Below are positions 1,815-44,990 of a stretch of 55,842 nt of DNA, piece after piece (position 1 is the stretch's first letter; the number at the start of each line of letters is the position of its first letter). The notes under the pieces were generated by a model. The model was not told the DNA's origin, made no database searches, and saw only the letters and a list, made by a program, of their open reading frames with translations. Both the position numbers and the translations under genes were made by a program. Where the stretch lies: IMG/VR virus record IMGVR_UViG_2923350032_000003, one strand, 5' to 3'. The DNA comes from a virus. Taxonomy: Duplodnaviria; Heunggongvirae; Uroviricota; Caudoviricetes.

Positions 1815-4800
1815 TATGCAAGCCTCACAATATAGTTAAATGCGATGTTTTTGACGGTGTTTTCCGCGTTACCAGCAGCGTTAACGGTGATGGTGTGTCC
1901 ATGTGAACCAATCGCAACGGAGTGCGTATGAGCACCAATACCGACAGTATGCGCGTGTGCACCTGCAGATGCTGCTGTGCCGGACAGTGAGTGGCTATGA
2001 TTACCATCTGTACTGGTATTAGCTAACCACCCCGTAGACATACCTACTGAGCCTTGTACACCCCAGGTATTTTGACCTGAGCTTGTATAACCATATTGAT
2101 AAGTATCTTTAAAAACACTGGGGTTAAATCGACGGCCATCTCTATGGCTGTGATTACCAGCTGCATTCGTGCTGCCACTTAAACTATGGGTATGCGCACC
2201 AGTGTTATTCGTGGATTTAGTGCCGTAATCAAACGACGATGTGGTTTTCGCCCCCAAATCCGTACTGGATGCGCTGGCGCTGTGGGTATGCGATTTAATG
2301 CCGTCCTGTTCCTGAGACAATACGGCCCGACCACTGGCAGGTTTGCCCTTAATCGTCCAGCCACGCATATCAGGGATCACGCCTGACGGATAAGCCGCTG
2401 CAAGTTTCGGGTATGCAGATTTGTCAAAAGCCTGCCCCTGCATCAGGGCATAACCAGACGGAACGGTATCTGATGGCCACGGGATTGGTGCGCCGACTGG
2501 GTAGCTTTCTGGTGGAAGATTTTTCGAGGTATAAACTTCTGCCCAGTCTTCCTCAAAACCATAGCCATCTCTTGAGGAACGGTAGAACAGACCTCCATTT
2601 CTGTAATGTGCCTTCATCTGCAAGGTCCGGCAACTTCCGACTCCGGTATAGAAGTTAACCAGAATATAGCTGTCGCCAGAGCGGGTGACATTGTAAGCGC
2701 CTGATTCGGCATTCCATGGAACGCCCCCATCCGCATCGGCATACGTATCCGTTGCTCTTCTGGCAAAAGCAGCAACATGCGCAGCGGTTAAAGTGATATC
2801 AGTAGAACCATCAAACGAAACACCAGATATTTTTATTGCTGTCTGAAGTTTCGTAGCTGTATCAGAATTTCCCTTAATCCCCTTAGGAGAATTAAGTGGT
2901 GTATTGATCGTCACTTCACCTGTTGCGTTATTTACTGCAAATGGTCGAAGACCGTTCCAGCCACCGTACTGGTCGCCTTTATCAGTCATGAGCAAGTAAG
3001 TATTTGCTCCATCATTTCGCCATATGACACCGTAATCACCTGCAATCATCCTTAACGCGTTCTGACTACGGACAATAACTTCATCATTAGCGTAAATCTT
3101 ATTCCCGCTAATGTCTGACTTACTCAAAACAGGATACGAACTATAAAATCCATTACCTTGTTTAAAATCTAAAATTAAATTTACCGCAACTGATTCAGAA
3201 TAAGGATCAGTTGCGCCAAATTTATAAGTCGTTTCAGCAACAATATAATCAGAAGCAGGTGCAGTAACGGAGAGACCTTCTTCTAAAAAGACCTCTACGG
3301 GAAATGCCCCACCTTCTATATAGAATACGCTGTCTACGGTATCGCCTTTATTACTCATCAGAATGGAATGAATAGCGCGTTCCGATGTTGAATAAGCCCA
3401 GAACATACCACAGGCATAGCTACCCCGGTCCGTCCAGCCGCCTGCGCAAACAAAACCATTAAACTCACAATTATTCATTCTGTGATTAGCTGAGCGACTT
3501 GGCGTTGAAATGACAACGCGGGATGCCCGATGGCTGTCATTCCTTTTTATCACTAACGGATAATATTTACCTTCCTGGACACCCGCCGGGGCATTTACCA
3601 CAACGTATCGCATCCCCTTTTTCTGATCCACTTCACCTTTGCTGTAAACATTAATGTTACTCAGGAAGCGGTCCTTGTCGGGAATATCAGCACCGTTCTG
3701 GTCTTTCTGCAGACGTTTCTCTGCATTGTCATAGGCTGCTTTTACTGCCTTTGGCGTTGCCGCCAGCGTTTCAGACGTGCTGTTGGTCGCACTGCTGAGC
3801 TGTACTACCCCCTTTTTCGTCGTGCTCGCATCCTCAAGCGCCACGGCGGATGCAATATCCTCTGCACGTTTTGCCGCTGTCTCAGCGCGCGTTGCTGCGG
3901 ATTCTGCCGTACTTTTGCTCTGTGCTGCCGCTGCCGCACTGCCAGCAGCCTCTGTCGCCTTCGTGGATGCTGTCGTGGCGCTGCCCTTCGCTGCGGATGC
4001 TTGTCTTGTCGCCTCATCTTTTGAAGCAGACGCCGATGATGCCGATGACGCCGCCGAACTGGCGGACGATGCGGCAGCCGTTTTTGAGGATTCTGCGCTG
4101 GTTTCCGACGCTTTCGCGTTCGTCTCGGATGTCTTCGCTGCGGAAGCAGACCTCGCTGCTGCACTGGCCTGTTCAGTGGCTTCGCCAGCCTTCGTTGTGG
4201 CTGTTGAAGCGGACGATGCGGCGCTTTCTGCCGATTTTCCGGCGGCGCTAGCACTGGCTGAGGCCTGCCCGGCACTTGTTGACGCGGCACTGGCAGATGA
4301 TGCAGCCGCTGTTTTTGAGCCTGCCGCAGCTGAGGCACTCTGTCCCGCTGCCGTTTCAGAAGACCTGGCGTTCGTCTCGGACGTTTTTGCCGCCTTCGCA
4401 GAATTTGCTGCCGCCGTTGCCGAGGAAGCGGCACTACTGGCGCTTGATGATGCGTTCGTTTCTGATGATTTCGCTGCCTCTTTTGAGGCCGCCGCATCCC
4501 GGGCTGAGGTGGCAGCTTCTGACGCCTTCGTGGTCGCGGCGGATGCAGAAGTGGCTGCAGATTTTTGTGACGCTGCCGCATTCGTTTCTGACGTTTTCGC
4601 GGCACTGGCACTGGTAGCTGCCGCGCTTTTTGAGGACTCTGCAGCAGCAGCACTTTTCGATGCTTCAGTGGCCTTTGTTGATGCCGTTCCTGCGCTGGAA
4701 GACGCTGACTGAGCCGACGAAGCGGCCTGTCCGGCTGACGTGCTGGCTGCGCGTGCTGAGCCTGCAGCATCAGTCGCATGGGTTGCCGCCTCACGGGCTG

Positions 4801-11473: not shown

Positions 11474-11811
11474 CAGATCACCACTTCGTCAAACTGACAC
11501 GAAAAATCGGTATAGGTGATATGTTCTGTCGCTGACCACGTTCGACACACCACTCTGATTTTTCTGTTAATACCCGGCGGGCGCCAAAAAAAAGATTTAT
11601 AGCCTTCATGCCGGGCTAAAAATTTTTCAAATGAATCACGTTCATTCGCCTCAACTTTGAAATCACAGGTGAAAACGCGCAGAGAATGATTAAGTCCATT
11701 TGGACTTCGTTGCTCATAACCATCGCCAAATCTTACAGTTTTTATCGATGGTTTATTTTCTGTTTTCATTCCATCCTCTGGTAACCAGTGAAATTCTTCC
11801 GTATTAGCCAC
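11473..11811 (-). CDS. Minor tail protein M
   Basis: 112 aa; synteny between tape measure and L. Confidence 0.75.
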
Positions 11812-14800
11812 TTAATATTCCCCCATCACGTCGCATATTTAACAGATTGCCCTGCACCCGCTGATCAACCATCCCCATAAGTGCTTTTATTGCCTGAGGG
11901 CCAATCTCTCCATTCTGGCCGTCATTTTGAATAGTGATTTGGTATACAGGGGCATAGGTAATATCTCCGCCTCCATTACCACTTTTACTATTAATAGCTC
12001 TGACACCAAGAGAACCATCGGAAGTTCGTGTTAATGGCATAATGGCTTCCGGTCCAGCCTCACCAAAAACACCAGCCCCTTTTGCAAAAGCAAAAAATTG
12101 CGGGGAATCATAAATACCGTTCGAATACGTGCTCAATGACGGAGACTCATAAATACCGCCCTTTGCATTCGGAATAAATTTACTAATAGCACTCCCGATA
12201 GTTCCTAAAATCCCCCCAGAAGAACTGTTACTAATGCTGTCGAAAATCCCAGTAATTGAAGCCTTTAATGCCATTCGACTAAGATCCGAAATCACGGAAG
12301 TAGCGAAAGAACGAAAATTTGCCTTGCCTGTCGTGACAAAATCACCCAGCGCATCGGTCATCCCATCAAACATCTGAGTCGTGGTTGATTTTATCTGCTC
12401 ACTGATATCCTTAGTGTCATCCAGCCAGTTATTGAATCCCTGGGAGGCACCACTAACCCAGTCTCCTGCCTGAATATCGAGCTGCTCGTTTTTCTGTCTG
12501 ACAATTTCTTTTTCCCGTTCCAGAGCATCATTCAGAGCCTGCATTTTCTCTTGAAAAACATGATCTGACATTCCACGGGATTTATCTGCATAGTCACGTT
12601 CAAGTTGCAGACGCTGATTGTTATATCCATGTTCAATCCGCAGTAATTCCTGCTGGCGTTGCTGATTTTTATCGCCAACCCCATAACCAGCAATCTGAAT
12701 ATCATACCCCTGCTGACGATTATCAATCGAAGCCTGCAATGAATCACGCCATGCTGTTATTTCGGCGGATTCCTTGATTAGCCTGTTATTCTTTTCAATC
12801 GCAACATTTTTCTCCATCAACGCGGTTATTTCTTCCCGGTGTAAGAGAAGCGATTTCTGATCCTGGGTTAATTTCGATGATGGTCGTGACTCTAGGTCGG
12901 CAATCCGCTGACGCCACTTAACCAGTTCCTGTTCAGAGGAACTTAATTTAACGGTCAACTCAGCTTGTGAACTTAGTAACGCATTCTGTTGATTCAGATG
13001 ATCAATCATTCGTTGGGCTGCATCATCAGAATAACCTTTCGCCTTTGGTTGCTTTGGATCTTTATAACGCTCATTTATTTGAGCGATAAGATTATTATAT
13101 TCTTCCTTTGAATACTGATTCTTTAGCTTTTCCAGTTTTGCAAGTTCACTAGCTCTCTGCTGCTCCCGGGTCTGATATTGTTTTGAAAAGGCATCTGCTC
13201 TCTGTCTGAGTTCAATTCCTTCCTGTTGTCGCTTGTTGTAATCGTTTATTGATGAATTTAGTACGTCCTGAGCAATTTTTTCTGCTTGAAGTACGCCCAA
13301 TTGCTGCTTTAATCGTGCCAGCCTTTTATTTTGAGCTCCGCCATCTCCAATGCCACCTAACCCGAAAACTCCGGGTCGGGTATTTTTTTCTATTTCATCA
13401 ATTTGACGGAGAACATCTGAGATTTTTTGATCAAGGGAGGCCTCACGGCCAATATCCAGCATGGAATCCCATGCCCATTTTGCGGAGTCTGCGACAGCTT
13501 TCCATGCAGTCTCAAGATAACCAAGATTTTCTTTAATCTGGTTGGTGCGCTGGATCATTGAGGATGAGTATTCTTCTGTCGCAATGCGGGCGGCCTCCTG
13601 CTGGTTCCCTTCATCCTGTAGCGCCTTAATCTGGTTATAAGTCGCAAGTGTCAGAAAATGGTACTGATCATTAAGTTTTGATATGGCACTGACAGGATCC
13701 TTTGCAATTTCATTGAAGTCATTAACCAGTTGTTCGGTTGATATTCCTGTTACTTCGCTCGTTTTTACTATCGCTGTCGTCACTTGCTCCAGCGAACTGC
13801 TCGCTACCTTTCCCGAACGCACAAGCTGATTTAATACTGCCGCCGCAGCACCAGTTGTCGAATCAGCCGCATTCCCGGCACGTTGAGCTATATCGCCCAA
13901 TTGCCCGCTGGTTGTCCCCAACTGATTTCCGGTAAGAATAAGAGATTTATTAAATTCGTCCTGCTCCTGAGAGCCTTTATAGTAAGCCAGTCCTAAGACC
14001 CCAACGGCTGCTGCGGCCAGGGTAAAAGGATTAATTAATCCCAGCACATAAGAACCTACACCTTTGATCGCCGGGCCAATCCCACCGAACATATCTTTTA
14101 GCTGGCCGCCCTGCTGCATTAACACCATAAATGGCGACTGACCAGTGGACAACCCAACAACAATATCCGTCATTTGTGCAGGCAACATGCGCATAGCAAA
14201 AGCCGTTTGTTTTGCCGACATTCCGGTTTTGCTTAATTGTGATTGAGTAACCTCAAGCTCACTCCGCATAGCACGAAGTTTTCCAGAAAGCTCCTCATAC
14301 ATTTCAGGAGAAAGCATCCCCTTAGCTTTTGCTTCATTGAGCTGTTTCTGTTGTTCTACCAGACGATTAAAAGCAGTTCCGACAGGATCAAGTTGAGCAA
14401 TCAGACGTTGCAAAGCAACAACCTGTTCATCATGCGCTTTTGCTGCTTCTCGCTCTGCCTGAGCCTCTCCGGTAAGCTCTCGCCGTGTTTCCTGTATTTT
14501 TCGGCTATAATTCTCAAACTGAGAACCATTTATTTTCCCGGATGCAAACGCAGCATTAAGTTCATCATGCTGTTGTTCAAGATTTCTTAGCGCCGCAGCC
14601 AGAGGGTCGATCTTGTCCAGCATTCTTTGAAAGGCCTGAGCCTGCGCTTCCTGCTGGGCGGCAGCAAGTTTTCCGGCCTTCTCGGCTTCTCTCTGCGCTT
14701 GCGCAACCCCGCTCAATTCCTCTGTGGTTTCATTAAGTTTACGGACAAGAAATTCATATTCTTCTTTATCAATAAGCCCTTTATCGAAAAATTTCTTTAA

Positions 14801-15037
14801 TTCAGAATAGCGTCGACCGACAGTATCAATTGCGGCACCAACTGGATCAATAGCTGCTTTTAATTTTGCGAGCGCGTTCTTCTCATCTTCTGTTGCCTTA
14901 GTCACTTTCCCTGCGCTATTTGCAGCAGTTTCCCCAGCCTGCGTCATTTTGACTAATGAGGAGGTCAGATTGTCAGCATTATTTTTCGCTCCAGTGCTAT
15001 CAATAATTATTGCGAGACGCGAGGTTTGCTCTGCCAT
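11804..15037 (-). CDS. Tail tape measure protein
   Basis: 1077 aa, coiled-coil-rich (Ala/Gln/Glu/Lys-rich N-terminal half), directly downstream of G/GT. Confidence 0.8.
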
Positions 15038-15202: not shown

Positions 15203-15972
15203 CTACACACACTGCTCCTGAAAATACTGGTCATCCAGTGCAAAGATCACTGCTTCAAATTCATCGCGCTCAATCAATACCGGATGAGTGGCTAAATATT
15301 CATTTATCTCTGTCAGAGATAAAGGCAAAGGCACCCCAGCCATTCCAGCATAACGTCGGGCACGGGATATTACCGAATAGGCGTACAACAACTCCTTAAG
15401 CACCGGGTCTATTTCTGGTTCCGGTATCGGTGGCAACCTGAGTTTTTCTCGCTTCCATCTTGCCTTTTCCCCCCTTTCTCCCCCGAACTCCGATAACCAC
15501 CGCTGGGCAGCTATGGCTTTTTTATCGTATCCTGCTTCTGCTGCTCTTTACCCTGGGCGATGCTGGCTGCTTCTGCAAGGATCTGCCAGTACAACTCTGG
15601 ATTCTGCTTAAGCAGCGCGATCCCTCGTTCTGCCGTATATTCCAGTGCAACCTCAACACCATTAACCAGTTCACCAACCCCTTTCCAGTCTTTCAGCAGA
15701 TAACGAGCGGCATTATCAATGAGTAAATCATCAACAGAATCCACCTCGGAAACCTTTGAAATATCAAACTCCTTCGTTCCGACGTGCAAACTGGCATCCA
15801 TTTTCTCAATGTGGCGACGGATTAATGCATTACGGGAGCGATACTGATCGTTATCGCTGCTTGCCACCAACAGTTTTAACCCGTCTACAGGTTTTAAGTC
15901 CTTCATTGGCGTAAACCAGCGTTCTCCACCAATGATAATTTTCTGATTAAGAATAAACATCCATAACCTCAT
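15203..15972 (-). CDS. Tail assembly chaperone GT, predicted -1 frameshift fusion product
   Basis: The -1 frame is open with no stop from the slippery site (15517-15523) to the stop at 15203; translated by hand. Confidence 0.55.
15511..15972 (-). CDS. Tail assembly chaperone G
   Basis: 153 aa between major tail gene and tape measure gene; ends 6 nt after an A AAA AAG slippery heptamer. Confidence 0.6.
   Translation of the reverse strand: MRLWMFILNQKIIIGGERWFTPMKDLKPVDGLKLLVASSDNDQYRSRNALIRRHIEKMDASLHVGTKEFDISKVSEVDSVDDLLIDNAARYLLKDWKGVGELVNGVEVALEYTAERGIALLKQNPELYWQILAEAASIAQGKEQQKQDTIKKP
15517..15523 (-). other. Programmed -1 ribosomal frameshift slippery heptamer A AAA AAG (G to GT)
   Basis: Forward-strand ctttttt; in G frame as ATA AAA AAG CCA TAG. 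Confidence 0.6.
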
Positions 15973-16475
15973 TCAATGCGTCCCCCTGTAGGGCAGTACC
16001 ACAGGAGGAATAACGGAAAATCAACTAATCGCCTCAGCACTGGCTTTTGCGATCACGGCAGCCGGGGAATTTTTTTTTCTGGTTATCGTAGGTGCTTCAT
16101 CTGCTGCGGTAATGCTCAATTGAACCTGGATAATGTCGCTATTACCCCCATCAGGCCATTCACCTGACACCTGAACCTTCGGGAAACTGAAAGTGTATGC
16201 CCCCTCTCCATTCGAAAGCGTGAAGCTGAACGGAACTGTTTCTCCAGTCAGTGTTTTACTCCAGATTTCCCACGCGGCTTTAGACCATGAAAGCGTCACC
16301 GTACCGGACGGTGTAAAAGTAGTCGGAATATTTGCTCCTGCATAAGGCGAGCCAGTCCCGATACAACGCTGTGTCTGGAGTTTGTTATCGAACTGAATAT
16401 CAAAACTGTCGATACAAAAACTGAACCGCCCCGGAAATCCTGGAGACTAAACTCCCTGAGAAAGAGGTAAACAGG

Positions 16476-16802
16476 ATGACTAAAAATACTCGTTTTTCCC
16501 CCGAAGTCCGTCAGCGGGCGATTCGTATGGTTCTGGAAAGTCAGGATGAATATGACTCACAGTGGGCGGCAATTTGTTCCATTGCCCCAAAGATTGGCTG
16601 TACGCCGGAGACTCTGCGTGTCTGGGTTCGCCAGCATGAGCGGGATACCGGGAGTGGTGATGGTGGACTCACCACCGCTGAACGTCAGCGTCTGAAAGAG
16701 CTGGAACATGAAAATCGTGAACTGCGCCGCAGTAACGATATCCTTCGCCAGGCTTCCGCTTATTTTGCGAAGGCGGAGTTCGACCGCCTCTGGAAAAAAT
16801 AA
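16476..16802 (+). CDS. IS629 transposase OrfA
   Basis: 108 aa, [23 protein letters not shown]..., HTH plus leucine zipper. Confidence 0.85.
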
Positions 16803-17689
16803 TGCCACTGCTGGATAAGCTGCGTGAGCAGTACGGGGTCGGACCGGTATGCAGCGAACTGCATATTGCCCCGTCAACGTATTACCATTGTCAGCAACAG
16901 CGACATCATCCGGATAAACGCAGTGCCCGTGCGCAGCACGATGACTGGCTGAAGAAAGAGATACAGCGCGTATACGATGAAAATCACCAGGTATACGGTG
17001 TGCGTAAAGTCTGGCGTCAGTTGTTACGGGAAGGTATCAGAGTGGCCAGATGTACAGTGGCGCGCCTCATGGCAGTTATGGGACTTGCCGGTGTTCTCCG
17101 GGGTAAAAAGGTCCGCACTACCGTCAGCCGGAAAGCCGTTGCCGCATGCGACCGCGTAAACCGTCAGTTCGTGGCAGAACGTCCAGACCAGTTGTGGGTG
17201 GCTGATTTTACCTGGGTAAGCACATGGCAGGGCTTCGTTTATGTGGCGTTCATCATTGATGTGTTCGCCGGATACATCGTGGGATGGCAGGTCTCATCAT
17301 CCATGGAAACAACATTCGTGCTGGATGCACTGGAGCAGGCGTTGTGGGCCCGTCGGCCGTCCGGCACAATCCATCACAGTGATAAAGGTTCTCAGTATGT
17401 ATCGCTGGCCTACACGCAGCGGCTTAAGGAAGCCGGATTACTGGCATCAACAGGGAGTACTGGCGACTCGTATGACAACGCGATGGCTGAGAGCATCAAT
17501 GGTCTTTACAAAGCGGAGGTAATACACCGTAAGAGCTGGAAAAACCGGACAGAAGTGGAACTGGCCACACTAACGTGGGTGGACTGGTATAACAATCGAC
17601 GATTGCTGGAAAGGCTGGGCCATATTCCTCCGGCAGAAGCAGAAAAAGCTTATTATGCTTCCATCGGAAATAATGATCTGGCAGCCTGA
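16802..17689 (+). CDS. IS629 transposase OrfB (DDE domain)
   Basis: 295 aa with integrase-core motifs. Confidence 0.85.
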   Translation: MPLLDKLREQYGVGPVCSELHIAPSTYYHCQQQRHHPDKRSARAQHDDWLKKEIQRVYDENHQVYGVRKVWRQLLREGIRVARCTVARLMAVMGLAGVLRGKKVRTTVSRKAVAACDRVNRQFVAERPDQLWVADFTWVSTWQGFVYVAFIIDVFAGYIVGWQVSSSMETTFVLDALEQALWARRPSGTIHHSDKGSQYVSLAYTQRLKEAGLLASTGSTGDSYDNAMAESINGLYKAEVIHRKSWKNRTEVELATLTWVDWYNNRRLLERLGHIPPAEAEKAYYASIGNNDLAA

Positions 17690-18322
17690 GTTCACAGATA
17701 AAATACTCTCCAGGAAACCCGGGGCGGTTCAAACCGTTACCTCCGGCAACACCATTCAGGCTTACTGCTGAAACCTCCTTAAACGAATAACGTAGCTTTC
17801 CTGCACTATCCACAGGTTCGCCTTTGATAAAATTCGTATCATCGGCCTTTGATTCCCAGTCCAGTCCGGCAAAGGTTACGGTCGCTGTAATATCGCCGTC
17901 GTTAGGGATCTGCATTTTCCATGAGCCAACCTGCGCTCCTCTGACGACAGAGGCAATTCCGACATCGGACGCATAGGTCGCCAGAGAAAATGTTATTCGC
18001 TCATTCCCCATTGTCAGAGAATCGCCTGACCATTCCGCGCCGAAACAGGATGCAAGAAAATCATCATGTTGACCCCAGCGAAATTTGGTACCAACATCAC
18101 CGCCGACATCCACAGTGCCAGGCGTCGCCCCCTGAGCCATCCGGGAGCCACCAATCTCATTATTTTCGCCTTTATTCTGGGTGGGTTTTACTCCCCAGCT
18201 TGTGCGTTTTAATAAACTCCAGTCACCACTTGCTGGCGTAGTGCCTGCAACCGTCTCCCGGATAAATGCCGAGATAACCTTTGCACCTGAACTCACAGGA
18301 GCCTCCTATGTCATTAATTGCG

Positions 18323-18715
18323 CTAGAGCGCGCGATATGGAATTTGAAGATTAAGCTGGAACCAGCCATTCTTTTCGCCAACGGCTATTGAGGAAACAGC
18401 CTGGTAACTGAGACGATCGTCATCCTGAAACTCAAACAGTTCCCGCAATTTATCGGCTGTCTCAGTAATGAGTTTTGAACCAGAACCTGCGGGGACAAAT
18501 AACTGAATAATGATTATCCCCGTGCGATAAACAATCGGCCCCGCGCCAATTTCATTAACTCCAGCCTGCCCGGGAATATTACTTAACCGCGCCCAGATTA
18601 ACTTACCGGAAGGATCGAACGTTGGCCCGTTCGGATACAATACGTCTTTTCCATCAATAATCGTCTGTGCCGTCATTCTGGAAATAACCGTATTTCTGAT
18701 TTCAGTAAACTTCAT
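18323..18715 (-). CDS. Tail terminator protein (U-like position)
   Basis: 130 aa directly upstream of the major tail gene; assigned by synteny and size only. Confidence 0.4.
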   Translation of the reverse strand: MKFTEIRNTVISRMTAQTIIDGKDVLYPNGPTFDPSGKLIWARLSNIPGQAGVNEIGAGPIVYRTGIIIIQLFVPAGSGSKLITETADKLRELFEFQDDDRLSYQAVSSIAVGEKNGWFQLNLQIPYRAL

Positions 18716-19092: not shown

Positions 19093-19476
19093 TTACGCTC
19101 TCCTTAACTGGATAGAGTAAACTGATGCGGAAGGATCTACACTTGCTGTAATTACCTCGTATCGTTGTAACTGCCTTGATACAGGATCATAAATCTCAAT
19201 AATATGGTCGACAGCTGGTTTATCCGTAACCTCGCATACCAGAGCGGTTAATTTAAGGTCACCATGCAAAATATTAATCCCATCAATTCTGCCCAGCTTA
19301 TAACGTGTCAACACGCCTCGCCCGGTATAGATTGCGGTGGATTCGCCGCCAGTTTCCGTCACAGGATCCCAGTGCCGGTGCGTAACGTAAGAACCAGAAA
19401 AATCACTCACGGCGTCCGCTAAATCCTCATCAAAAGCAGCGGCAACCTCTGACTGAATCTCTTCACGAAGCCCCAT
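19093..19476 (-). CDS. Head-tail adaptor protein
   Basis: 127 aa; synteny between connector and tail completion genes. Confidence 0.4.
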   Translation of the reverse strand: MGLREEIQSEVAAAFDEDLADAVSDFSGSYVTHRHWDPVTETGGESTAIYTGRGVLTRYKLGRIDGINILHGDLKLTALVCEVTDKPAVDHIIEIYDPVSRQLQRYEVITASVDPSASVYSIQLRRA

Positions 19477-19871
19477 TATCCCCCCCTCACAACCCTGACT
19501 TGTGAGCGACTAAGTCCGTACGGTTTCAGCAGTGCTATCGCAAGCTGTAAATCGGGTTCAAGCAATGCAGTGCTGTTTGCTGGCAACTCAGAAAATGATT
19601 TCGATACACTGACCCCGTCAGCCGACACGGCTTTACTGATAACAACGCCAGAATCATTTTTCTGCTGAAACAACTTACCGAATGAGGCAATTCTGGCTGC
19701 ATATGCTCCCGCAAGTTTTACCTCTTCAGGAATACGGGATGGGTTAATTTTCAGGTTGAAGCCATTAAGCCAGGCATTAGCCATTAAAACAGCTTTATTT
19801 TTAGCGTTCTCACTCGTCCAGGCGTTCCCAAACGCATTATCAACGTCATCACAGGTCACGTAAGTGATCAT
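19476..19871 (-). CDS. Head-tail connector / head completion protein
   Basis: 131 aa; synteny downstream of capsid gene. Confidence 0.4.
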   Translation of the reverse strand: MITYVTCDDVDNAFGNAWTSENAKNKAVLMANAWLNGFNLKINPSRIPEEVKLAGAYAARIASFGKLFQQKNDSGVVISKAVSADGVSVSKSFSELPANSTALLEPDLQLAIALLKPYGLSRSQVRVVRGG

Positions 19872-28205: not shown

Positions 28206-28516
28206 ATTCCTCCTCCTCCTCCCCGCCATGCATGATCTCCACCATGCGCTGCGTCATTCGGACAAATCCATTTTCAATAGCCTGCTGATAATCAATGATC
28301 ACCAGCGCCGACTCCTCGAAAAGGCACTGAATTTCAGCGGGGGCATGAGCGTAATAGTCCGCAATTCTGCTGAAATTAAACACTGTGTGACGTTCTGCCG
28401 CACACAGGAGGAATTTCTCAATATCAGGATCAAGGGACGCCGAACGTATCCGGCTGATCAGCTCCTGAGTTTTCGTATCGTCGTACAGTTCACTGATATC
28501 CGGTTTACTGTAGTGG

Positions 28517-29914
<1,398 letters not shown>

Positions 29915-35002: not shown

Positions 35003-35322
35003 GGTCAATACAAAGGATGCTTCGTCTTTATTATAGTAATCTGAGGCGTCGGGTGTCTTGTATCAGACAACATATTGTCCCGCTAAACAGCGAATTACAA
35101 ACCACCCTGCAATGATCTCTCATCTCATTTTATATGAGTTGACGACATCAGGATAACGCATCATCAGCCCCTGCCAAGAAATATCAAAACTCCCGCCAGC
35201 AATGTGTTATCACAATATTGTAAAAAAAACACAGCACCGAAACTATAACTGGTCTCTGTTATAATTTGGAGCAGAAAGACCAGTTGCCCAACTAGCAGCA
35301 TTCTCCCCTGCTTTCCTGACGT

Positions 35323-35349
35323 AAAAAAACCGCATTAAGCGGTTTTTTT
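35323..35349. terminator. Bidirectional intrinsic terminator, candidate tR'-like terminator about 80 nt downstream of Q
   Basis: AAAAAAACCGC-ATTAA-GCGGTTTTTTT; perfect hairpin with A-run and T-run on both sides. Confidence 0.55.
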
Positions 35350-35429
35350 ACGATGTCCATGTCTGCAATCCGCCTCGCGATACAGCTTTGCGAAGCATAG
35401 CAAAATTGAAGCAGTTTATACGTAAGAAA

Positions 35430-35972
35430 TCAAGCCATTTTCTCAGCAAATGATTCACGCATGGGAATATATAGGGCATACTCAGCAACAGCTAACCAAT
35501 TAGCAATCCGTTTTTCGCATGTGCTAAAACACCACTCTGGGTGTGCATCATTTAGCAATTCAGCCATTTTGCGCTTAGTCATCCCCCGCCCTTCATAGCG
35601 TTGCCGGAGAATGCAAATCAATCCTGGATGCTCTGCCAGCACCTCACTTATGACTCGATCAATACATAACGCCTCTGCATCAGTACAATGCGCCAGCCAG
35701 CTCTTTTGCTTGCCGTTGATCATCTCTCGCAAAAACGCTTCCAGCTCAGCTTTCTCTATTCCCGCTTTTTTCATTCTGCGCAGGGCTTCATTAATGGCTG
35801 TTTTCGTCAGTTTTTTGGATGCCAACAACTGATTGAACATATTCCCTGACCTGCCACCGCCAATATACGACCAGCGCCCCCACATACGTAGTTTTCCCTG
35901 AATCCAGACACTTTCCAGCGTGGTGAGGCGAAGGTGTTCTCCGCTTTTTCCTGTATTCGTTGGGTAAATCAT
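35430..35972 (-). CDS. Late gene antiterminator Q-like protein
   Basis: 180 aa; position immediately upstream of the late terminator and lysis genes; weak recalled family resemblance. Confidence 0.45.
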   Translation of the reverse strand: MIYPTNTGKSGEHLRLTTLESVWIQGKLRMWGRWSYIGGGRSGNMFNQLLASKKLTKTAINEALRRMKKAGIEKAELEAFLREMINGKQKSWLAHCTDAEALCIDRVISEVLAEHPGLICILRQRYEGRGMTKRKMAELLNDAHPEWCFSTCEKRIANWLAVAEYALYIPMRESFAEKMA

Positions 35973-36259
35973 AAATGACCTTTCTTTCTCCAGATTTCTT
36001 GTGTGCGAAAAACCCCTTCAGCATGCATCAGGCGCAATTCTTCTTTGGTGTAATCGCTGGTTTTTACCCGCCCGTCGATTAGATCGTGGCATGAGCTACA
36101 GGCTATCGCCGCCTGCATATCGTGTGGTTTTGTCGCTGTTCCGCACGTCCCCGCCAGCCTGTAATGCGCCAGCACAGAGGTTTCGGGATTGTGATTGCAG
36201 TAGCCAGGGATTCTGATCTGGCACATCTGGCCTTTAGCCGCTTTACGTAAATTCACCAT
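35969..36259 (-). CDS. DUF1364-type Cys-rich nin-region protein (YbcO-like)
   Basis: 96 aa with Cys/His cluster; position upstream of Q. Confidence 0.45.
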   Translation of the reverse strand: MVNLRKAAKGQMCQIRIPGYCNHNPETSVLAHYRLAGTCGTATKPHDMQAAIACSSCHDLIDGRVKTSDYTKEELRLMHAEGVFRTQEIWRKKGHL

Positions 36260-36858
36260 TACGCAAACTCCAGTAGTTGTGCGGCCACATTTTCAACTTC
36301 CTCCTGAGAGGAGAATTTACGAAACAGAATCCAGTTCCACAGCACATTCAGTACAGATTTATAAACCTGCTGAAACTCGACTTCGTCCATATTCGCAAAA
36401 GCGATGGATTTTGCCCGACGCCCACGGCTACCGTCCGGATAAATATGCTCGGTGTAAAATCCGGCCTGAATGGTTACCCACTCGCGGAAAGCCTCAAACG
36501 ACTTTAGCAACGCCGTATCCCGGGTTCTACGAGTCGCAACGGTGTTAAGGTATTGCTCTGCGGCATCACTCAGGGCTGGCGTGTGTTCCCGACCAACTGA
36601 TTCGCACAGGTAATCAACGAAACCAGACAGCAGTTCTCGTTCGCGAGGCGTGATCGCCCCACCGACCGGAGTCCAGTAATCGAATCCCAGTTGCAGGAGT
36701 TTGAAAAAACGCTTGTGGAATGCGTAGTTACGCACACGCTTAAAGTCTGCGTGTATCCACTCACCTATTTTGATTTGATGCAGAAAATCGCAACTCTCCG
36801 GCGTCGCCGGGAGAAGTAAACCAGAAGAAGTTTGTTTGACCAGTTGTATATGCGCCAT
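36259..36858 (-). CDS. DUF1367-type nin-region protein (YdfU-like)
   Basis: 199 aa; nin-region position. Confidence 0.4.
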   Translation of the reverse strand: MAHIQLVKQTSSGLLLPATPESCDFLHQIKIGEWIHADFKRVRNYAFHKRFFKLLQLGFDYWTPVGGAITPRERELLSGFVDYLCESVGREHTPALSDAAEQYLNTVATRRTRDTALLKSFEAFREWVTIQAGFYTEHIYPDGSRGRRAKSIAFANMDEVEFQQVYKSVLNVLWNWILFRKFSSQEEVENVAAQLLEFA

Positions 36859-37225: not shown

Positions 37226-37626
37226 AGTAGCCACATGATAAGTTGCTGGAATCATATTTCCCACTCAAGTCATTAACATTTGATAAGATATATCTAAAAG
37301 GACGCCTTTACATTATTTATGTGTATATAATTTATTTATATACACAGTAAAGGCATCCTGGGAAAATATTTATCGTTAAAAAATACATCATAAATAATCA
37401 AGCTGAAATTTCAGAACACAACTAATACACACAATAAGGTTCAGTAACAATAATCTATGTGGACTACATCGAGATTTTTTGATTAAACTTTAATAACTTA
37501 TTCCTAACACACAGAATGCATAAACTAAAAGTAAAACAAATAGTTATACGAAAAACAACCATATTTATTATATCTTCTCCTCTAATCAACATATCAATTA
37601 TGTGTTTCATAACAGCTTGACATAAC

Positions 37627-37663
37627 CCTCAAAAACACGCATTTATAATGCATGTTTTTGAGG
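37627..37663 (+). promoter_or_regulatory. 37-bp palindromic operator (NsrR-box-like) overlapping the promoter of the yeaR-like gene
   Basis: Perfect 11-bp arms cctcaaaaaca / tgtttttgagg flanking cgcatttataatgca; TTGACA at 37617-37622; GGAGG ribosome binding site at 37662-37666. Confidence 0.5.
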
Positions 37664-37671
37664 AGGTGGTT

Positions 37672-38010
37672 ATGACACACAAGAGAATTCCTAAAGATTG
37701 GGTAATCAAACGCTCAACTCCGTTCTTCACAAAAGAGAACGTACCTTCAGCGTTATTAACACATCATAATACAGCAGCAGGTGTTTTTGGGCAGTTGTGC
37801 GTAATGGAAGGCACTGTAACATATTATGGTTTTACTGATGAGAATGCTACTGAACCGGAGATAAAAGTAGTCATTAATGCTGGCGCTTTTGCAACAAGCC
37901 CACCACAATACTGGCACCGTGTTGAACTAAGCGATGATGCTCAGTTTAATATTAACTTTTGGGTCGCTCCAGACTTCTCGGGCGAAAAAGTCTATAGCAC
38001 CAAAAAATAG
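37672..38010 (+). CDS. DUF1971 protein, YeaR-like
   Basis: 112 aa from MTHKRIPKDW...; recalled similarity to E. coli YeaR; strong ribosome binding site. Confidence 0.65.
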   Translation: MTHKRIPKDWVIKRSTPFFTKENVPSALLTHHNTAAGVFGQLCVMEGTVTYYGFTDENATEPEIKVVINAGAFATSPPQYWHRVELSDDAQFNINFWVAPDFSGEKVYSTKK

Positions 38011-38037
38011 ATGATCATATTAAAAATGCTTTAACAG

Positions 38038-38075
38038 TCAGACCCGGCAGGGCTATCCCCGACGGGTCTCATTTT
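38038..38075 (+). terminator. Intrinsic terminator after yeaR-like gene
   Basis: GACCCGGCAGGG...CCCCGACGGGTC stem followed by TCATTTTTGT. Confidence 0.5.
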
Positions 38076-38733
38076 TGTAAATATATTGGTTCTACATTGA
38101 CAGGAGACTTCAACCATAAGAAGTAATCTGAATACTTGAGCAATAAATTTACTTAAGATTAATGAGCGCACCTTGCCGGACAAAGATAAACCAAGGTAAC
38201 ACCTTTTTTCTAGCCAGTATGTAATCAATCAGAAAGCCGCTCCATAAGAACAACAGCAAGACAATAAATTGCCATTACAGCCGCAATAGCTAGCGCACAT
38301 TTGAGAACCAGCACGACAACCTCCTGTATTGGACGTACACCAGTTCTGATAAATATGAGGCTGTCTCATCATTGATTCAATATAACTATTGGGTATAGTT
38401 TCTGTGATTTTGTTCTGTAGAAATGGAACACAACAACCAGTCACCACCAGCACTTCTTTAAATACGCCAAGTCCGACGCAAGCTAACCTTCTAGTCCGCT
38501 TTGAGCGAGGAGCGGACCAAACCCGGCCAACTGACTCTTAAAGGGGCCGCAGGAATTTTTCGTCTGAACTTTCGAAGCTCCTCTCCCTGAAGACAGAAAA
38601 CTTCTGTGTGCTGTGGGAATATTGAATCTTTGCCTTAGATATAAATAATTTTATCCCGCCTGAAGTTTACATTATTTTATTTATCTGTTTTTCTAAATCA
38701 GACTGCACTCCTTACTTAAATCAGGAGCCAGTC

Positions 38734-39933
38734 ATGCCATTTGTTATTTATGTGTTTACTATCAGTGCCTTTGCGCTCGGACTCGCGGAATTTGTCCCCA
38801 TTGGGCTGACAGACGTTATGGCTCAGGGGTTGTGTGTGGGTGTGGAGCAGACCGGGGCAGCGGTTACAACCTATGCACTGGGGGCAACGTTCGCGGCACC
38901 CGTACTGTCTGCGCTGACAGCAAGCTGGAGCCGGAAAAATGTAATGCTTACAACTGCCGTTGTGTTTACTGCCGGTAGTCTGGCGGCCGCGTTTGCAGCC
39001 ACATTACCTCAGCTCCTGTTAGCGCGGTTCATTGCTGGTCTGGGACACGGCCTGTTTCTGGCTGCGGCATCCAGTACCGCAGCTCGTCTTGCTGGACCGG
39101 GTAAAGCAGGCAGAGCGGTGGCTGTGGTATTTGGTGGCTTTACTCTGGCGATGGCAATCGGCGTACCGCTGAGTACATGGTTGGGGGGGGTGGTCTCATG
39201 GCGTCCAGTTCTCGGCGCTATTGCCGCTTTTGGCGCGTTCGGATTCCTTGGACTGTTGTTCGGTATGAAAGATCCCGTACGCAGCGTGCCCGGTGAACAT
39301 AGTGACTCAGCAATGCAGAATATCGGCATGCTGTTTAACCGTAAGTTGCTGGCCGGCGCGCTGGTTACGGTGCTGGCGTATGCAGGCTCGTTTACGGCTT
39401 ACACCTTTATCGCACCTATTCTGACGCAGGTGACAGGGGTTACCGGAGCAACGGTGAGTCTGTTTATGCTGGTTTACGGTATTACAGCTGCGGTAGGTAA
39501 TATTCTTGGTGGGAAACTTACCGACAGCATGGGGGTTAATCGTGCCAATATACTCATCATTAGCGGCATTGTTGTTGTCGTGCTTGGTATGTGGCTGCTG
39601 TCATCCTCACCGGTGAGCATGGGCATTCTGGTTGCGCTGCTGGGTATGGTGACATTTGCCGCAGTGCCGGCACTGCAGGCCCGTCTGATTGGTGTCGCTG
39701 AGCAACATGCTCCTCATGCGCATGGTGTTGCTGCCGGCCTGAATATTGCGGGCTTCAACTCAGGTATAGCGCTGGGATCAGTACTGGGCAGCATTACTAT
39801 AAGCCACGCCGGTATCGTGTATACCGGTATCAGCGGTGCGATTGTTTCTCTGCTCGGCCTGCTGTTGCTGCTTGCACAAATCCGTCGCAGCCACAGTCGT
39901 AAATTTCAACAGGTTAAAATCGTAGGCCAGTAA
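38734..39933 (+). CDS. MFS transporter (12-TM efflux type)
   Basis: 399 aa, hydrophobic throughout with MFS-like loop motifs. Confidence 0.7.
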   Translation: MPFVIYVFTISAFALGLAEFVPIGLTDVMAQGLCVGVEQTGAAVTTYALGATFAAPVLSALTASWSRKNVMLTTAVVFTAGSLAAAFAATLPQLLLARFIAGLGHGLFLAAASSTAARLAGPGKAGRAVAVVFGGFTLAMAIGVPLSTWLGGVVSWRPVLGAIAAFGAFGFLGLLFGMKDPVRSVPGEHSDSAMQNIGMLFNRKLLAGALVTVLAYAGSFTAYTFIAPILTQVTGVTGATVSLFMLVYGITAAVGNILGGKLTDSMGVNRANILIISGIVVVVLGMWLLSSSPVSMGILVALLGMVTFAAVPALQARLIGVAEQHAPHAHGVAAGLNIAGFNSGIALGSVLGSITISHAGIVYTGISGAIVSLLGLLLLLAQIRRSHSRKFQQVKIVGQ

Positions 39934-39944
39934 AGGGAGGTTAT

Positions 39945-40637
39945 ATGCTTACCCGTGAAAATATGCTTAATGGCACATTTGTCAGGGTGCATGAAGCGCT
40001 GCTCCCGGCGAATATGCTCTGGGACGCTGAAAAAATACGCGCATCAATGAACTCTACTCTGGAGGAGCGCCCGACGGGTGCTCCTGTCTGGATATTTGCC
40101 TACGGGTCATTGATGTGGAATCCCGTGCTGGCGATTGAAGAAATGCAACGGGCCCGTCTGAAAGGATGGCAGCGCAGTTTCTGCATTCGTTTGATATCCG
40201 GACGAGCGACTCCTGATGTCCCCGGCAGGATGTTATCGCTCGACGAAGGTGGAATTACCGAAGGTATTGCGTTCAGACTGCCGGAATCGACTCTTATTAA
40301 TGAGCTGGAAATTGTCTGGACGCGCGAGATGATAACCGGTCTTTACCGTCCGGTCTGGGCAGACGTTTCGCTAGGAAACGGTGAGGAAATTCAGGCGCTG
40401 GCTTTCGTATCAGACAGACTGCATCCGCATTATGAACAGGACAATCTTACAGCGACCGTAGCGTTGAGCATCGCATCTGCCCGTGGAGACATTGGCACGA
40501 ATGCAGATTATGTATGGAAACTGCAGGCCACTCTGGGTGCGTTGGGAATACGGGATGATTACGTGAGTGAACTGGCCCTTGCTCTGCATGAGTCTCCCTG
40601 TAACGATAAACTTCATCAGCGAGGCGCTTCACTATGA
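39945..40637 (+). CDS. ChaC-like gamma-glutamylcyclotransferase
   Basis: 230 aa; WIFAYGSLMWNP motif and overall resemblance to E. coli ChaC. Confidence 0.7.
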   Translation: MLTRENMLNGTFVRVHEALLPANMLWDAEKIRASMNSTLEERPTGAPVWIFAYGSLMWNPVLAIEEMQRARLKGWQRSFCIRLISGRATPDVPGRMLSLDEGGITEGIAFRLPESTLINELEIVWTREMITGLYRPVWADVSLGNGEEIQALAFVSDRLHPHYEQDNLTATVALSIASARGDIGTNADYVWKLQATLGALGIRDDYVSELALALHESPCNDKLHQRGASL

Positions 40638-41515
40638 GCCATCTGAGCCATCTGCGAACGTTTCTTGAGGCCTATCGCTCTGGCTCCTTTTCAAAGGCGG
40701 CAGAACTACTGGGCATCACTCAGCCCGCGGCGTCACAGCATATCCAGTCTCTTGAGACTCTGGTTGGTAAGCGTCTGTTTATCAGGCAGGCCAGAGGCGT
40801 GACGGCAACCGAAGCTGCGGATGAGCTTGCCCGCTCAGTTTCACCCTTCATTGATGGTCTGGAAGAAAAGCTGTCCTCTTTCCGGTCAGGCTCTGTACGC
40901 GGGGGAACAATTAATCTGGCAGGACCGCCAGATTTTATTCATTCCCGGCTTGGGACAGTAATGGCTCCACTAATGAAGGAGGGGTATCGCCTACGCTTTC
41001 ATACCGGCAATAAGCAACGTATTTATTCCCTTTTGCATGACGGGAGCGCCGATCTCGCTGTTACCGCATCTATGCCTGATGACCGTCTGTACGGCTATGC
41101 ACATCTACTGACTGAACGCATGCTCCTTGTTCATGCTCCCGCCATGTCAGAGATCATCGGATCAGAACCTGGTGCTGAAACGCTTGCCTCATTACCGCTG
41201 ATTGCTTATGACGAAGAGTTGCCACTGATTAGAGCGCTCTGGGCCTCCATGTTTCAGAGAGCCCCTGAGATGCAGGCTACATTCACCATTCCGGATTTAC
41301 GTATTATCCGCGACTTGGTCTGTGACGGCCACGGGTGGACAGTGCTGCCGGATTATCACTGTGACAATGACCTGAAAAGTGGTCGCCTGATTTCAGTGAC
41401 ACCTGCAGACCTCGCTCCGACTAATCATCTTTATCTGGTCTGGAACAAAAGGACGGCTAATAACAGCCGAACCGCCTATGTTCGGGATTACATTCTTAAA
41501 ACGTTTCCGCGTTGA
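40634..41515 (+). CDS. LysR-family transcriptional regulator
   Basis: 293 aa; N-terminal HTH (FSKAAELLGITQPAASQHIQSLE); start overlaps chaC-like stop. Confidence 0.8.
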   Translation: MSHLSHLRTFLEAYRSGSFSKAAELLGITQPAASQHIQSLETLVGKRLFIRQARGVTATEAADELARSVSPFIDGLEEKLSSFRSGSVRGGTINLAGPPDFIHSRLGTVMAPLMKEGYRLRFHTGNKQRIYSLLHDGSADLAVTASMPDDRLYGYAHLLTERMLLVHAPAMSEIIGSEPGAETLASLPLIAYDEELPLIRALWASMFQRAPEMQATFTIPDLRIIRDLVCDGHGWTVLPDYHCDNDLKSGRLISVTPADLAPTNHLYLVWNKRTANNSRTAYVRDYILKTFPR

Positions 41516-41560
41516 TGTTTGAAACGGATGATTGGAGATGCGTATCATAAGTTACGTATG

Positions 41561-41600
41561 TCCGCTTCTGGCACAAAGCAGACGCCCACTCTCACGCGAA
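41561..41600. repeat. Copy A of an about 36-bp direct repeat (core TGGCACAAAGC-GAC-CCAC)
   Basis: Matches 45225-45260 at about 28 of 36 positions. Confidence 0.4.
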
Positions 41601-41645
41601 TGCTTTGCCCTTGACTTGCCAACAACCGTATCGCTTGCTCCGCAA

Positions 41646-42938
41646 CTATGGTTTTTTATTAGAATCTTCGCCACTAAATAAATTATAATAAATTGATTTT
41701 ATTAGATATCTATCAGAATCTATATGGTCAGCACGAGTAGCATGCTCTAATGTTTCAAATGCTAGGGTTTGTGCGGCTTCAGCAAAAATTCCAGGCCAAC
41801 CCTTACTCAGCATCGACAGTCCTTTAAGTACCCTTATCTGAATTTCCCTCATACTGGCACCATCGCGCGCAACAGGTGAGAAAAAGTCTTCAAGTAGATC
41901 GTTATTCTGAAGTGGTGCAACATGTACAGAAGGATATTTCACTTCTATTTCATCAGATTTATTCTGCGCGTAAGCGGAAAGTATACGTACACCTCTGCCA
42001 ATGACATCAATGGCGGTTCCAGGATCGTTCACTGCGGGGGAAAGGGCTCGGCAGGCTATTTCGGCCATGACGCTAAGACAAAATCGGGGGTCCTGAGCAA
42101 ATGAACGTACATCCGAGACAATAATCGTCTCAAGTAAATCGGTGCTGATTGATGACTCCTGGCCCTGACTCAGGTACAAAACTGGCGTGGACGGATGTAT
42201 GAAACTGCCCGGCTGCGCCACGAGGTATACATGACGGGGATCATTGGTCAGCAGCTTGCTGAGTTTCACCATATCAACATATTCAACATAGCCAATCTTT
42301 TTCGGATAAACTGCAACCGTTCCTTTCGGCTGTTCATTGTTCTCAAGCCATGGATATCCGCCGAGACAGGGATTTCTTGCTCTCGCAATAAATGTTTCGA
42401 TGGCCGCCTGTTCTACTTTTGCCGTTGTCTCACCAACCCTCCCCAGAGAGGTCAAATGCTGTATCCAGCGAAGCAATGTGATGAGGATTAAGGCAATGAC
42501 AACCAGTGTTACAATGAATAAAATGACTCTCCCCCTTTCTCCATAAGCTCCCATATTGAGGGCAATAATCCCTACCAGACTGAAGAGAAAAGAACCGATG
42601 AAGGTGGCCAGTACATTTTGTGTGGTGACGTCTTCAACAACTAAACGAGTAGCTCTGGGAGTCACATTAGTAGTGGCTGAACCGTAGGCTGTGACCATGA
42701 TGCTCAGCGAAAATGTGGTCACTGCCAGCATACTCGATGCCAGTATGTTCAGAATGTTATCGACTGCTTCCGCACCAACCTTCACGGAAACCGACTCAGG
42801 TATCATTGATTTAAAAAGAATTGATAAAAGGGCCGTTATTATTGCGACAATTGCGAATAACGTTGCCCTGAACCATAGTTTTTTAAATGTCTGCTTCAGC
42901 ATCCATTTCCAGCGTGAAATCATTCTGCATTCCCTCAT
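41646..42938 (-). CDS. DUF2254-like membrane protein
   Basis: 430 aa; N-terminal multi-TM region plus C-terminal soluble domain. Confidence 0.5.
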   Translation of the reverse strand: MRECRMISRWKWMLKQTFKKLWFRATLFAIVAIITALLSILFKSMIPESVSVKVGAEAVDNILNILASSMLAVTTFSLSIMVTAYGSATTNVTPRATRLVVEDVTTQNVLATFIGSFLFSLVGIIALNMGAYGERGRVILFIVTLVVIALILITLLRWIQHLTSLGRVGETTAKVEQAAIETFIARARNPCLGGYPWLENNEQPKGTVAVYPKKIGYVEYVDMVKLSKLLTNDPRHVYLVAQPGSFIHPSTPVLYLSQGQESSISTDLLETIIVSDVRSFAQDPRFCLSVMAEIACRALSPAVNDPGTAIDVIGRGVRILSAYAQNKSDEIEVKYPSVHVAPLQNNDLLEDFFSPVARDGASMREIQIRVLKGLSMLSKGWPGIFAEAAQTLAFETLEHATRADHIDSDRYLIKSIYYNLFSGEDSNKKP

Positions 42939-42986
42939 ATTGCAGCCGGGATAAATAAATGCCGCCTCTGTGGCGGCATGTTGCTG

Positions 42987-44990
42987 TTAACGAACCAGAT
43001 GCAGGAAGTGCAGGTGTTTTTCGTACTGGTCCAGTATGTCATTAATCAGCTGTTCCTGATTCCAGCCCATTACATCATAATTTTGGCCGCCCTCTTTGAG
43101 ATAGACTTCAGCGCGATAATATCGATGTTGTTCACTCTGCTGCTCATCATTATCCAGCGCAGCGAGCGCGAAGGTCGGTGAGTTATACCCGCGAAGCCTC
43201 ACTTCATATATATAATTCAGCTCGTTGCCCAAATCGACTTCAAGGCGAATACGATCCTCGGCGGCGTCACTGATGTGGCTTATCGTTCCCTGCTTGTTAA
43301 GTTCCTCCTGAACCAGCGTCATGGCGGGTTGGATAATGTCGTCCATAAAACGTTTCACAAGAGAGCGCTTCGGCAAATACGCGATATTGCGTAACCTTCT
43401 CTGCCAGGGAATTGGGTTACGTGCAGCCGTAGGAGCAATAGTCGCCATGCTAAGGCTTTCACGCTTGGTCAAATCCCGACGCAGGGCTTTTAACAGTCCG
43501 TATATGGATATTAATAAGATAACTGAGAAGGGCAATGCACTCGCTATCGTTACGGTTTGCAACGCACTCAGCCCCCCTGCGATCAGCAGGGCAATAGCAA
43601 CAACGCCCATGAGCGATGCCCAGAAAATTCGCTGCCAGACGGGCGTGTTTGCCACCCCACCTGATGCCAGAGTATCCACAACCATTGCCCCCGAATCAGC
43701 AGACGTTACAAAGAAGACGATGACCATCGCCATTGCAATGAATGACAGCACGGAAGAGAACGGGAAATGCTCCAGGAAATTAAACAGGGCAAGCGCAACA
43801 TCCTGCTGAACGGTATTGGCGAGGTCAGTGGCGCCCTGGTTCATGATGAGATAGATGGCGCTGTTTCCAAACACCGTCATCCACATGAGCGTAAAGCCGG
43901 CGGGAACAAACAACACGCCAGTCACGAACTCACGAATTGTCCTGCCGCGGGAAACGCGTGCAATGAACATACCTACAAACGGCGACCATGAAAGCCACCA
44001 TCCCCAGTATAATAATGTCCAGCCCCCCAGCCAGTTGCTCGACTTGGGTTCATACGCGTAAAGGTTGAACGTTTTACTCACCAGTTCCGACAGATAACCA
44101 CCCGTATTTTCCACAAATGACTTCAGCAGAAGCACAGTGGGACCCAGGCACAAGACCAGCGCCAGGAGCAACACCGCCAGGCCCAGATTAAGCTCAGACA
44201 GGATGCGTATTCCCTTGTCCAGGCCGGACACCACCGAAATCGTCGCTAACCCCGTGATGACCACGATCAAAATGACCTGTACCGTTTCATTGATGGGCAC
44301 GCCGAAAAGATGGTTCAAACCGGCATTCACCTGCAATACACCGTAACCCAGCGATGTTGCAACGCCAAAGACAGTGCCTATCACGGCGAAGATATCAACC
44401 GCGTGGCCTATAGGCCCGTAAATGCGATCGCCGATAATGGGATAGAGCGCAGAACGCAGCGTTAAAGGCAGACCGTGACGGTAACTGAAAAAGGCCAGAA
44501 TCAGCGCCACGATGGCATAAATTGCCCATGCGTGCAGACCCCAGTGGAAGAACGTCAGGCGCATGGCTTCCTTCGCTGCCGCAACGGTCTCTGGAGTGCC
44601 GACAGGTGGCGAAAGATAATGCATCACAGGTTCGGCAACGCCAAAGAACATCAGGCCGATCCCCATCCCTGCCGAAAAAAGCATCGCGAACCAGGAGTGG
44701 TAGCTGAAATCAGGCTGCGCATGGTCTGGGCCCAGCTTTATATCACCGTAACGTGAGAGTCCAAGGAACGTGACGCTCAGTAAAATCAGGGCCACAGCAA
44801 GTATGTAGAACCAGCTGGCATTCGTGAAGATTTGTTGCTGAAGTAGTTTAAAATTTTTGTCGGCGACATCCGGGAATACGGCGGCAAAGGCGACAAGAAG
44901 GAAAATTAGCAAAGCAGATGTAAAGAATACCGCTTTGTTAATCTGGCTTGTAGACTTCTTTGGGGTTGTATCATTTTCACTCATAATCAT
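42987..44990 (-). CDS. BCCT-family transporter (BetT-like)
   Basis: 667 aa; BCCT-type TM topology and long cytoplasmic C-terminal tail as in recalled BetT. Confidence 0.75.
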   Translation of the reverse strand: MIMSENDTTPKKSTSQINKAVFFTSALLIFLLVAFAAVFPDVADKNFKLLQQQIFTNASWFYILAVALILLSVTFLGLSRYGDIKLGPDHAQPDFSYHSWFAMLFSAGMGIGLMFFGVAEPVMHYLSPPVGTPETVAAAKEAMRLTFFHWGLHAWAIYAIVALILAFFSYRHGLPLTLRSALYPIIGDRIYGPIGHAVDIFAVIGTVFGVATSLGYGVLQVNAGLNHLFGVPINETVQVILIVVITGLATISVVSGLDKGIRILSELNLGLAVLLLALVLCLGPTVLLLKSFVENTGGYLSELVSKTFNLYAYEPKSSNWLGGWTLLYWGWWLSWSPFVGMFIARVSRGRTIREFVTGVLFVPAGFTLMWMTVFGNSAIYLIMNQGATDLANTVQQDVALALFNFLEHFPFSSVLSFIAMAMVIVFFVTSADSGAMVVDTLASGGVANTPVWQRIFWASLMGVVAIALLIAGGLSALQTVTIASALPFSVILLISIYGLLKALRRDLTKRESLSMATIAPTAARNPIPWQRRLRNIAYLPKRSLVKRFMDDIIQPAMTLVQEELNKQGTISHISDAAEDRIRLEVDLGNELNYIYEVRLRGYNSPTFALAALDNDEQQSEQHRYYRAEVYLKEGGQNYDVMGWNQEQLINDILDQYEKHLHFLHLVR

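Follow-up and report, generated by a model that had tools for sequence, protein, structure and literature searches.

An IS629-type insertion in the predicted tail tube gene of a Rac-type prophage

The window analysed, a 55,842-nucleotide stretch of DNA (IMG/VR record IMGVR_UViG_2923350032_000003), is an entire Rac-type prophage of 55.8 kb at the ttcA locus, collinear with a region of the E. coli 13KWH46 genome (NZ_CP019250.1) that is flanked by uspF, ompN and ynaM on one side and by ttcA on the other. Its gene order begins with pinR, tfaR, a tail fibre gene, lom, J, tail tip genes, the tape measure gene, ydaY and the tube gene, continues with head-tail connectors, a P22-type capsid gene, portal, terminase, a ParB-like gene, trkG and lysis genes, and closes with an 8-kb cargo block, replication and immunity genes, kilR, racC, recET, ralR, xisR and intR, the stop codon of which coincides with the end of the window. 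The Rac-type character of the prophage is seen in its ttcA-adjacent integration and in its possession of intR/xisR, recET, kilR, sieB, trkG and pinR. The Rac prophage of E. coli K-12 occupies the same integration locus (ttcA/intR through pinR, adjoining uspF and ompN) and has recET, racC, kilR, sieB, ydaS/T-like genes, trkG, ydaY, tfaR and pinR in common with the window, but it is a 23-kb remnant without the terminase-to-tube genes, whereas the window copy has kept the whole head and tail module.

The prophages of the window and of 13KWH46 are 99.99-100% identical and collinear, differing by four SNPs and one 1-nt indel over approximately 54.5 kb. Each of these two near-identical prophages also has one private insertion sequence: the IS629 element described below is found only in the window, and another IS3-family element is found only in 13KWH46 (positions 35184-36513 of 13KWH46 region L003, corresponding to approximately 33242 of the window), where it lies between essD and a TolA-like gene. 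Both prophages carry approximately 8 kb of non-phage cargo (window ~37600-45000) between the nin-like and replication regions, encoding a DUF1971 protein, an MFS transporter, a gamma-glutamylcyclotransferase, a LysR regulator, a DUF2254 protein and a BCCT transporter. The indel affects a poly-C run (19474-19480) that is one C longer in the window than in 13KWH46, where the product is 135 aa long and bears the RefSeq name 'protein singed'. The possibility that this indel, at 19480, is a second lesion was dismissed, because the 131-aa form of the head-tail gene in the window is the common one, shared with LD91-1 and ON032529.1.

The morphogenesis genes from terminase to tail fibre are all full-length and collinear with intact copies, the split tube gene apart, and the IS629 insertion in the latter is the only lesion noted in the head and tail module relative to 13KWH46. 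The features of the locus, and a second insertion sequence elsewhere in the window, are as follows.

11804-15037, minus strand: tape measure gene, 1077 aa (open reading frame list, annotation comparison)
15203-15972, minus strand: downstream neighbours, a G-like tail chaperone reading frame (15511-15972, ydaY) and its -1 frame extension to 15203 (heptamer, frame reading)
16021-16421, minus strand: 3' part of the tail tube gene, from the remainder of codon 189 to the stop (comparison with the intact gene)
16419-16421, no strand: target-site duplication, copy 1 (AAC; single copy in the intact gene)
16422-17731, plus strand: IS629-type insertion sequence of the IS3 family, 1310 bp (limits from empty-site comparison with 13KWH46)
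16422-16446, plus strand: left terminal inverted repeat (TGAACCGCCCCGG...), outer 13 bp perfect, 22 of 25 positions matching the right end
16476-16802, plus strand: orfA, 108 aa, HTH_Tnp_1 (Pfam PF01527, 1.4e-12), with the private substitution R78H
16757-16873, plus strand: ALIL pseudoknot, a -1 frameshift stimulator across the orfA/orfB overlap (Rfam RF01497)
16802-17689, plus strand: orfB, 295 aa, HTH_21 (Pfam PF13276) and rve/DDE (PF00665, 1.5e-26)
17707-17731, plus strand: right terminal inverted repeat (...CCGGGGCGGTTCA; scripted sequence check)
17732-17734, no strand: target-site duplication, copy 2 (AAC; single copy in the intact gene)
17496-18296, minus strand: current reading frame, 266 aa, with 188 native residues and 78 from the antisense strand of the IS (open reading frame list, scripted check)
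17732-18296, minus strand: 5' part of the tail tube gene, codons 1-188 plus 1 nt (comparison with the intact gene)
18323-18715, minus strand: upstream neighbour, a tail terminator-like gene (RefSeq annotation of the identical 13KWH46 gene)
28509-29766: second IS3-family element, 1258 bp, with reading frames on the minus strand and ends TGTAGTGG...CCACTACA

The original prediction described a 1310-bp insertion sequence with perfect terminal repeats and a flanking 3-bp duplication, AAC. Direct reading of 15900-18400 and a scripted check place the element at exactly the predicted positions, 16422-17731, with its transposase genes antisense to the tail operon. It starts with TGAACCGCCCCGG and finishes with CCGGGGCGGTTCA, and the TG opening, the CA closing and the length of 1310 bp are those of IS629 (IS3 family). 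The terminal inverted repeats are perfect for the first 13 bp from the outside (TGAACCGCCCCGG), but over 25 bp they are imperfect, with identity at 22 positions, and to that extent the description needed amendment. The AAC duplication is present on both sides of the element, and the empty site in 13KWH46 has GTT/AAC once only; because the intact gene possesses a single copy, the pair is evidently a true target-site duplication and not a 1-in-64 coincidence.

The tube gene starts with GTG at 18296, with AGGAGG five nucleotides upstream, and the insertion point lies after nucleotide 565, at codon 188/189. Joining 17735-18296 to 16021-16421, which removes IS629 and one AAC copy, gives the continuous frame that had been anticipated (963 nt, 320 codons plus stop); this restored gene has no mismatch in 963 nt with the intact gene of 13KWH46 (WP_000094292.1, named 'phage tail tube protein' in RefSeq), and its product is identical to a 320-aa CDS of GenBank ON032529.1. 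The reading frame thus runs on across the two halves, and each intact homologue compared is a continuous 320-aa protein, contrary to the possibilities, raised beforehand as grounds for refutation, that the halves would not join in frame or that the gene would naturally end near 17732. A different C-terminus or a frameshift at an A9 run (16070-16079), hinted at by a tblastn alignment ending at residue 307, was ruled out by the identical 320-aa C-terminus of the intact homologues. The exact 266-aa fusion product of the present reading frame has no record in the contig collection.

ON032529.1 is entitled 'Salmonella phage SPF_0923', but it was rejected as an isolated phage that could attest activity of the intact module: it carries the host genes uspF, ompN, nifJ (pyruvate-flavodoxin oxidoreductase) and sitABCD, ends within the lysis region, and looks like an E. 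coli-type Rac prophage with host flank, not a virion genome. The vB_EcoS-xxxR records were likewise rejected as isolated phages, being in-silico prophages from clinical isolates (bioRxiv 10.1101/2022.06.29.498070).

The identification of the element as IS629, also part of the original prediction, is supported by its length, its architecture and an OrfB protein 100% identical to the entry 'IS629 transposase OrfB [E. coli O157:H7 str. Sakai]' (found on 454 contigs). The IS629/IS1203/IS3411 group of O157:H7 Sakai and Shigella has the same length of 1310 bp, TG...CA ends, imperfect repeats of approximately 25 bp, 3-bp duplication and 0/-1 arrangement of orfA and orfB with an ALIL pseudoknot. The coordinates of the two genes (16476 and 16802) place orfB of the window in the -1 frame relative to orfA, and the match of the pseudoknot to RF01497 is full-length (120.3 bits versus a gathering score of 50, E 7e-32). 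RefSeq annotates closely related copies as programmed-frameshift transposases.

Among 5,426 complete E. coli genomes, 4,257 contain DNA matching the IS629 copy, at approximately 31,000 places in total; the median for IS629-type elements is 4 places per genome and the maximum 52. None of the ~31,000 places in the 5,426 genomes is an exact DNA match to the window copy; its best E. coli relative is 99.5% identical (6 differences), and the copies labelled 'IS1203 family' in RefSeq and the LD91-1 copy are 95.4-95.8% identical, the LD91-1 copy at 95.4% and one IS1203-labelled copy at 95.8%. Unlike the other E. coli IS629 copies compared, this one has two private substitutions, R78H in OrfA and T at IS position 1283. 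The former (window 16708) lies in a basic, leucine-zipper-like stretch, and the latter, a change from C to T (window 17704), is close to the right inverted repeat. In a collection of 15 billion proteins, just one other contig (1282 bp) carries exactly this OrfA. With no feature that appears inactivating, this IS629 copy looks intact.

Identification of the split gene as the major tail (tube) gene, as originally predicted, is supported by domain content, RefSeq naming and gene order. The restored protein matches Pfam PF18906 (Phage_tube_2; 9e-32, 111.1 bits versus a cut-off of 27), with residues 4-293 aligned to profile positions 1-266 of 266, and residues 1-300 match the sequence of PDB chain 8xan_B, titled 'Major tail structural protein' (E 2.5e-12). 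PHROGs assigns the protein to phrog_290 (E 3e-112), labelled 'minor tail protein', which conflicts with the Pfam, RefSeq and PDB naming and is regarded as imprecise. The gene is preceded by the terminator-like gene and followed by the ydaY reading frame, which has a canonical slippery heptamer (A_AAA_AAG at 15523-15517, minus strand) four codons ahead of its stop; a -1 shift at this heptamer would yield a 256-aa GT-like fusion ending at 15203. At this G/GT-like locus RefSeq annotates only a 119-aa 'YdaY'. The order of terminator, tube, frameshifted G/GT-type chaperones and tape measure is that of siphoviruses, and because this classic order accompanies the PF18906 match, 'major tail protein' is probably the right name.

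The further description of the gene as V-like stands for function and gene order only. The operon position is that of lambda gpV (terminator, tube, G/GT chaperones with a -1 frameshift, tape measure), and the same role may be presumed, but sequence homology to lambda V is not detectable by BLASTP (best E ~1); the Pfam family is PF18906, and the protein is 320 aa long versus 246 aa for gpV.

Of 734 complete genomes that carry the tube gene, 707 have 80% or more of it as a single contiguous stretch; in about 96% of carriers the gene is contiguous, with conservation of 98% or higher. Disruption is the exception among carriers. Neither the left nor the right IS629 junction was found by megablast in the 5,426 complete RefSeq E. 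coli genomes, and a left-junction 30-mer has no exact match in GTDB representative genomes or JGI metagenome contigs. Since the junctions are absent from the 5,426 genomes, the insertion is recent and probably confined to the source lineage, and would have come after the split from a 13KWH46-like ancestor.

The tube gene is also interrupted in other carriers. E. coli LD91-1 (NZ_CP192621.1) has the same 963-nt gene split by an IS629-type element that is likewise 1310 bp long and oriented as in the window (positions 3148-4457 of region L006), with a 3-bp duplication, but its insertion lies approximately 120 nt into the gene, its duplication is GGG, and the two IS variants differ at 60 positions; because site and variant differ, the LD91-1 insertion is evidently an independent event. 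In strain 2017.06.04CC the tube gene match falls in two pieces, with an IS5 family transposase annotated there, and in NT1F31 the tube gene is found in two places; the records listed beside LD91-1 for these strains are NZ_AP025209.2 and NZ_CP045190.1. There are thus at least three independent IS-associated disruptions of the tube gene (the window, LD91-1 and 2017.06.04CC) among approximately 735 carriers, a number compatible with chance.

Transposition of an IS629-type element into codon 188/189 of the 320-codon tube gene, duplicating AAC, would account for the present arrangement. The predicted tube product now consists of 188 native and 78 IS-derived residues and would lack the C-terminal 132 residues; the PF18906 domain spans residues 4-293, and because the insertion sits in the middle of this single tube domain, the truncated product should not form a tube. 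It can soundly be inferred from the sequence that tail-tube production is lost, and without a functional tube subunit the prophage would not assemble its own tails. Defective O157 prophages can be rescued by other prophages (PMC2669165); because co-resident prophages can do so, the loss would concern this genome's own gene, not necessarily the cell. The insertion may also be polar on the chaperone, tape measure and tip genes that lie downstream of it, although an Stx2 phage with IS629 in its late operon still transcribed the late genes beyond the element and was still produced (PMC7430833). Taken as a whole, the explanation that a recent, lineage-specific IS629 insertion in the tube gene of a Rac-type prophage has left it with no functional tube subunit and no tails of its own is very probably correct.

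The alternative that survives best accepts the insertion as real but makes it inconsequential, the Rac-type prophage having been 'grounded' earlier, so that IS629 would represent neutral decay and not the inactivating lesion. The ParB/Srx (ynaK-like) gene adjoining the terminase genes is split by the 1258-bp IS3-family element at 28509-29766, which is flanked by a TAC duplication (28506-28508 and 29767-29769) and the removal of which yields one long reading frame; the gene is intact as a 792-nt CDS in ON032529.1. Because the same insertion is present in 13KWH46, this element is older than the IS629 event. The early region bears the 8-kb cargo of transporters and a regulator, Rac is a classic cryptic prophage, and every 'phage' database record with this module is an in-silico prophage region, not an isolated virion; the split ParB-like gene and the in-silico origin of these records are the reasons why the prophage may already have been grounded. 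Against this, the ParB-like gene may not be essential, the terminase-to-tail-fibre genes are full-length and collinear with intact copies, and the tube gene is so widely conserved and contiguous among its carriers. Prior grounding is therefore a possible but less favoured reading, and loss of the tube subunit through the IS629 insertion is preferred.

It could also be proposed that the Rac-type tube gene is a recurrent IS target, either through host selection to disarm virions yet keep the prophage, or as a reversible switch dependent on excision; this appears distinctly improbable. The narrower proposal that the disruption in the window is reversible, with precise excision restoring the tube gene in a subpopulation and leaving the prophage conditionally competent, has in its favour that IS629 and both AAC copies are intact, so that exact removal of the element would give back the 963-nt gene in its wild-type form, and that the IS-excision enhancer of some E. 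coli acts on IS629; as the window contains no excision-enhancer gene and no sign of selection for switching, it is considered highly improbable. Least probable of all is an assembly artefact, in which a repeat-resolving assembler misplaced an IS629 copy into the prophage: the high repetition of IS629-type elements in E. coli and the absence of the junction from every other genome searched might suggest it, but the private substitutions of this copy speak against it, and it is very unlikely because both inverted repeats are present down to their final base and the three flanking base pairs, found once in the empty site, are exactly duplicated, which marks transposition and not a collapsed repeat.

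The preferred reading, a recent IS629 insertion that has cost the prophage its tube subunit, describes a routine, ordinary event: IS629 and its 3-bp duplication are already known, and prophage decay mediated by IS elements has been well documented in E. coli (PMC2669165, PMC7430833). IS insertions inactivate E. coli prophage genes in, for example, nu1::IS of Sakai Sp4 and stx2::IS629 of FRIK1275 (PMC2669165, PMC7430833); in the latter strain the IS is in a non-essential gene, phage is still produced, and the downstream late genes are transcribed (PMC7430833). As in these cases, a lambdoid prophage has a late or morphogenesis gene interrupted by an IS, often IS629; unlike them, the gene hit here is that for the tube of a Rac-type prophage and does not belong to an Stx or Sp phage.

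The IS629 insertion raises no new biological question and is of value mainly for annotation: a single pseudogene with IS629 inside it is the fitting annotation for 16021-16421 and 17732-18296, and the prophage is best classed as tail-defective. The independent hits on the same 963-bp gene in other strains are only a mildly interesting side point. As a clean, recent and lineage-specific event, the insertion may serve as a strain-typing marker, in the manner of IS629 sites in O157, and it offers an example of step-wise decay in a nearly complete Rac-type prophage.
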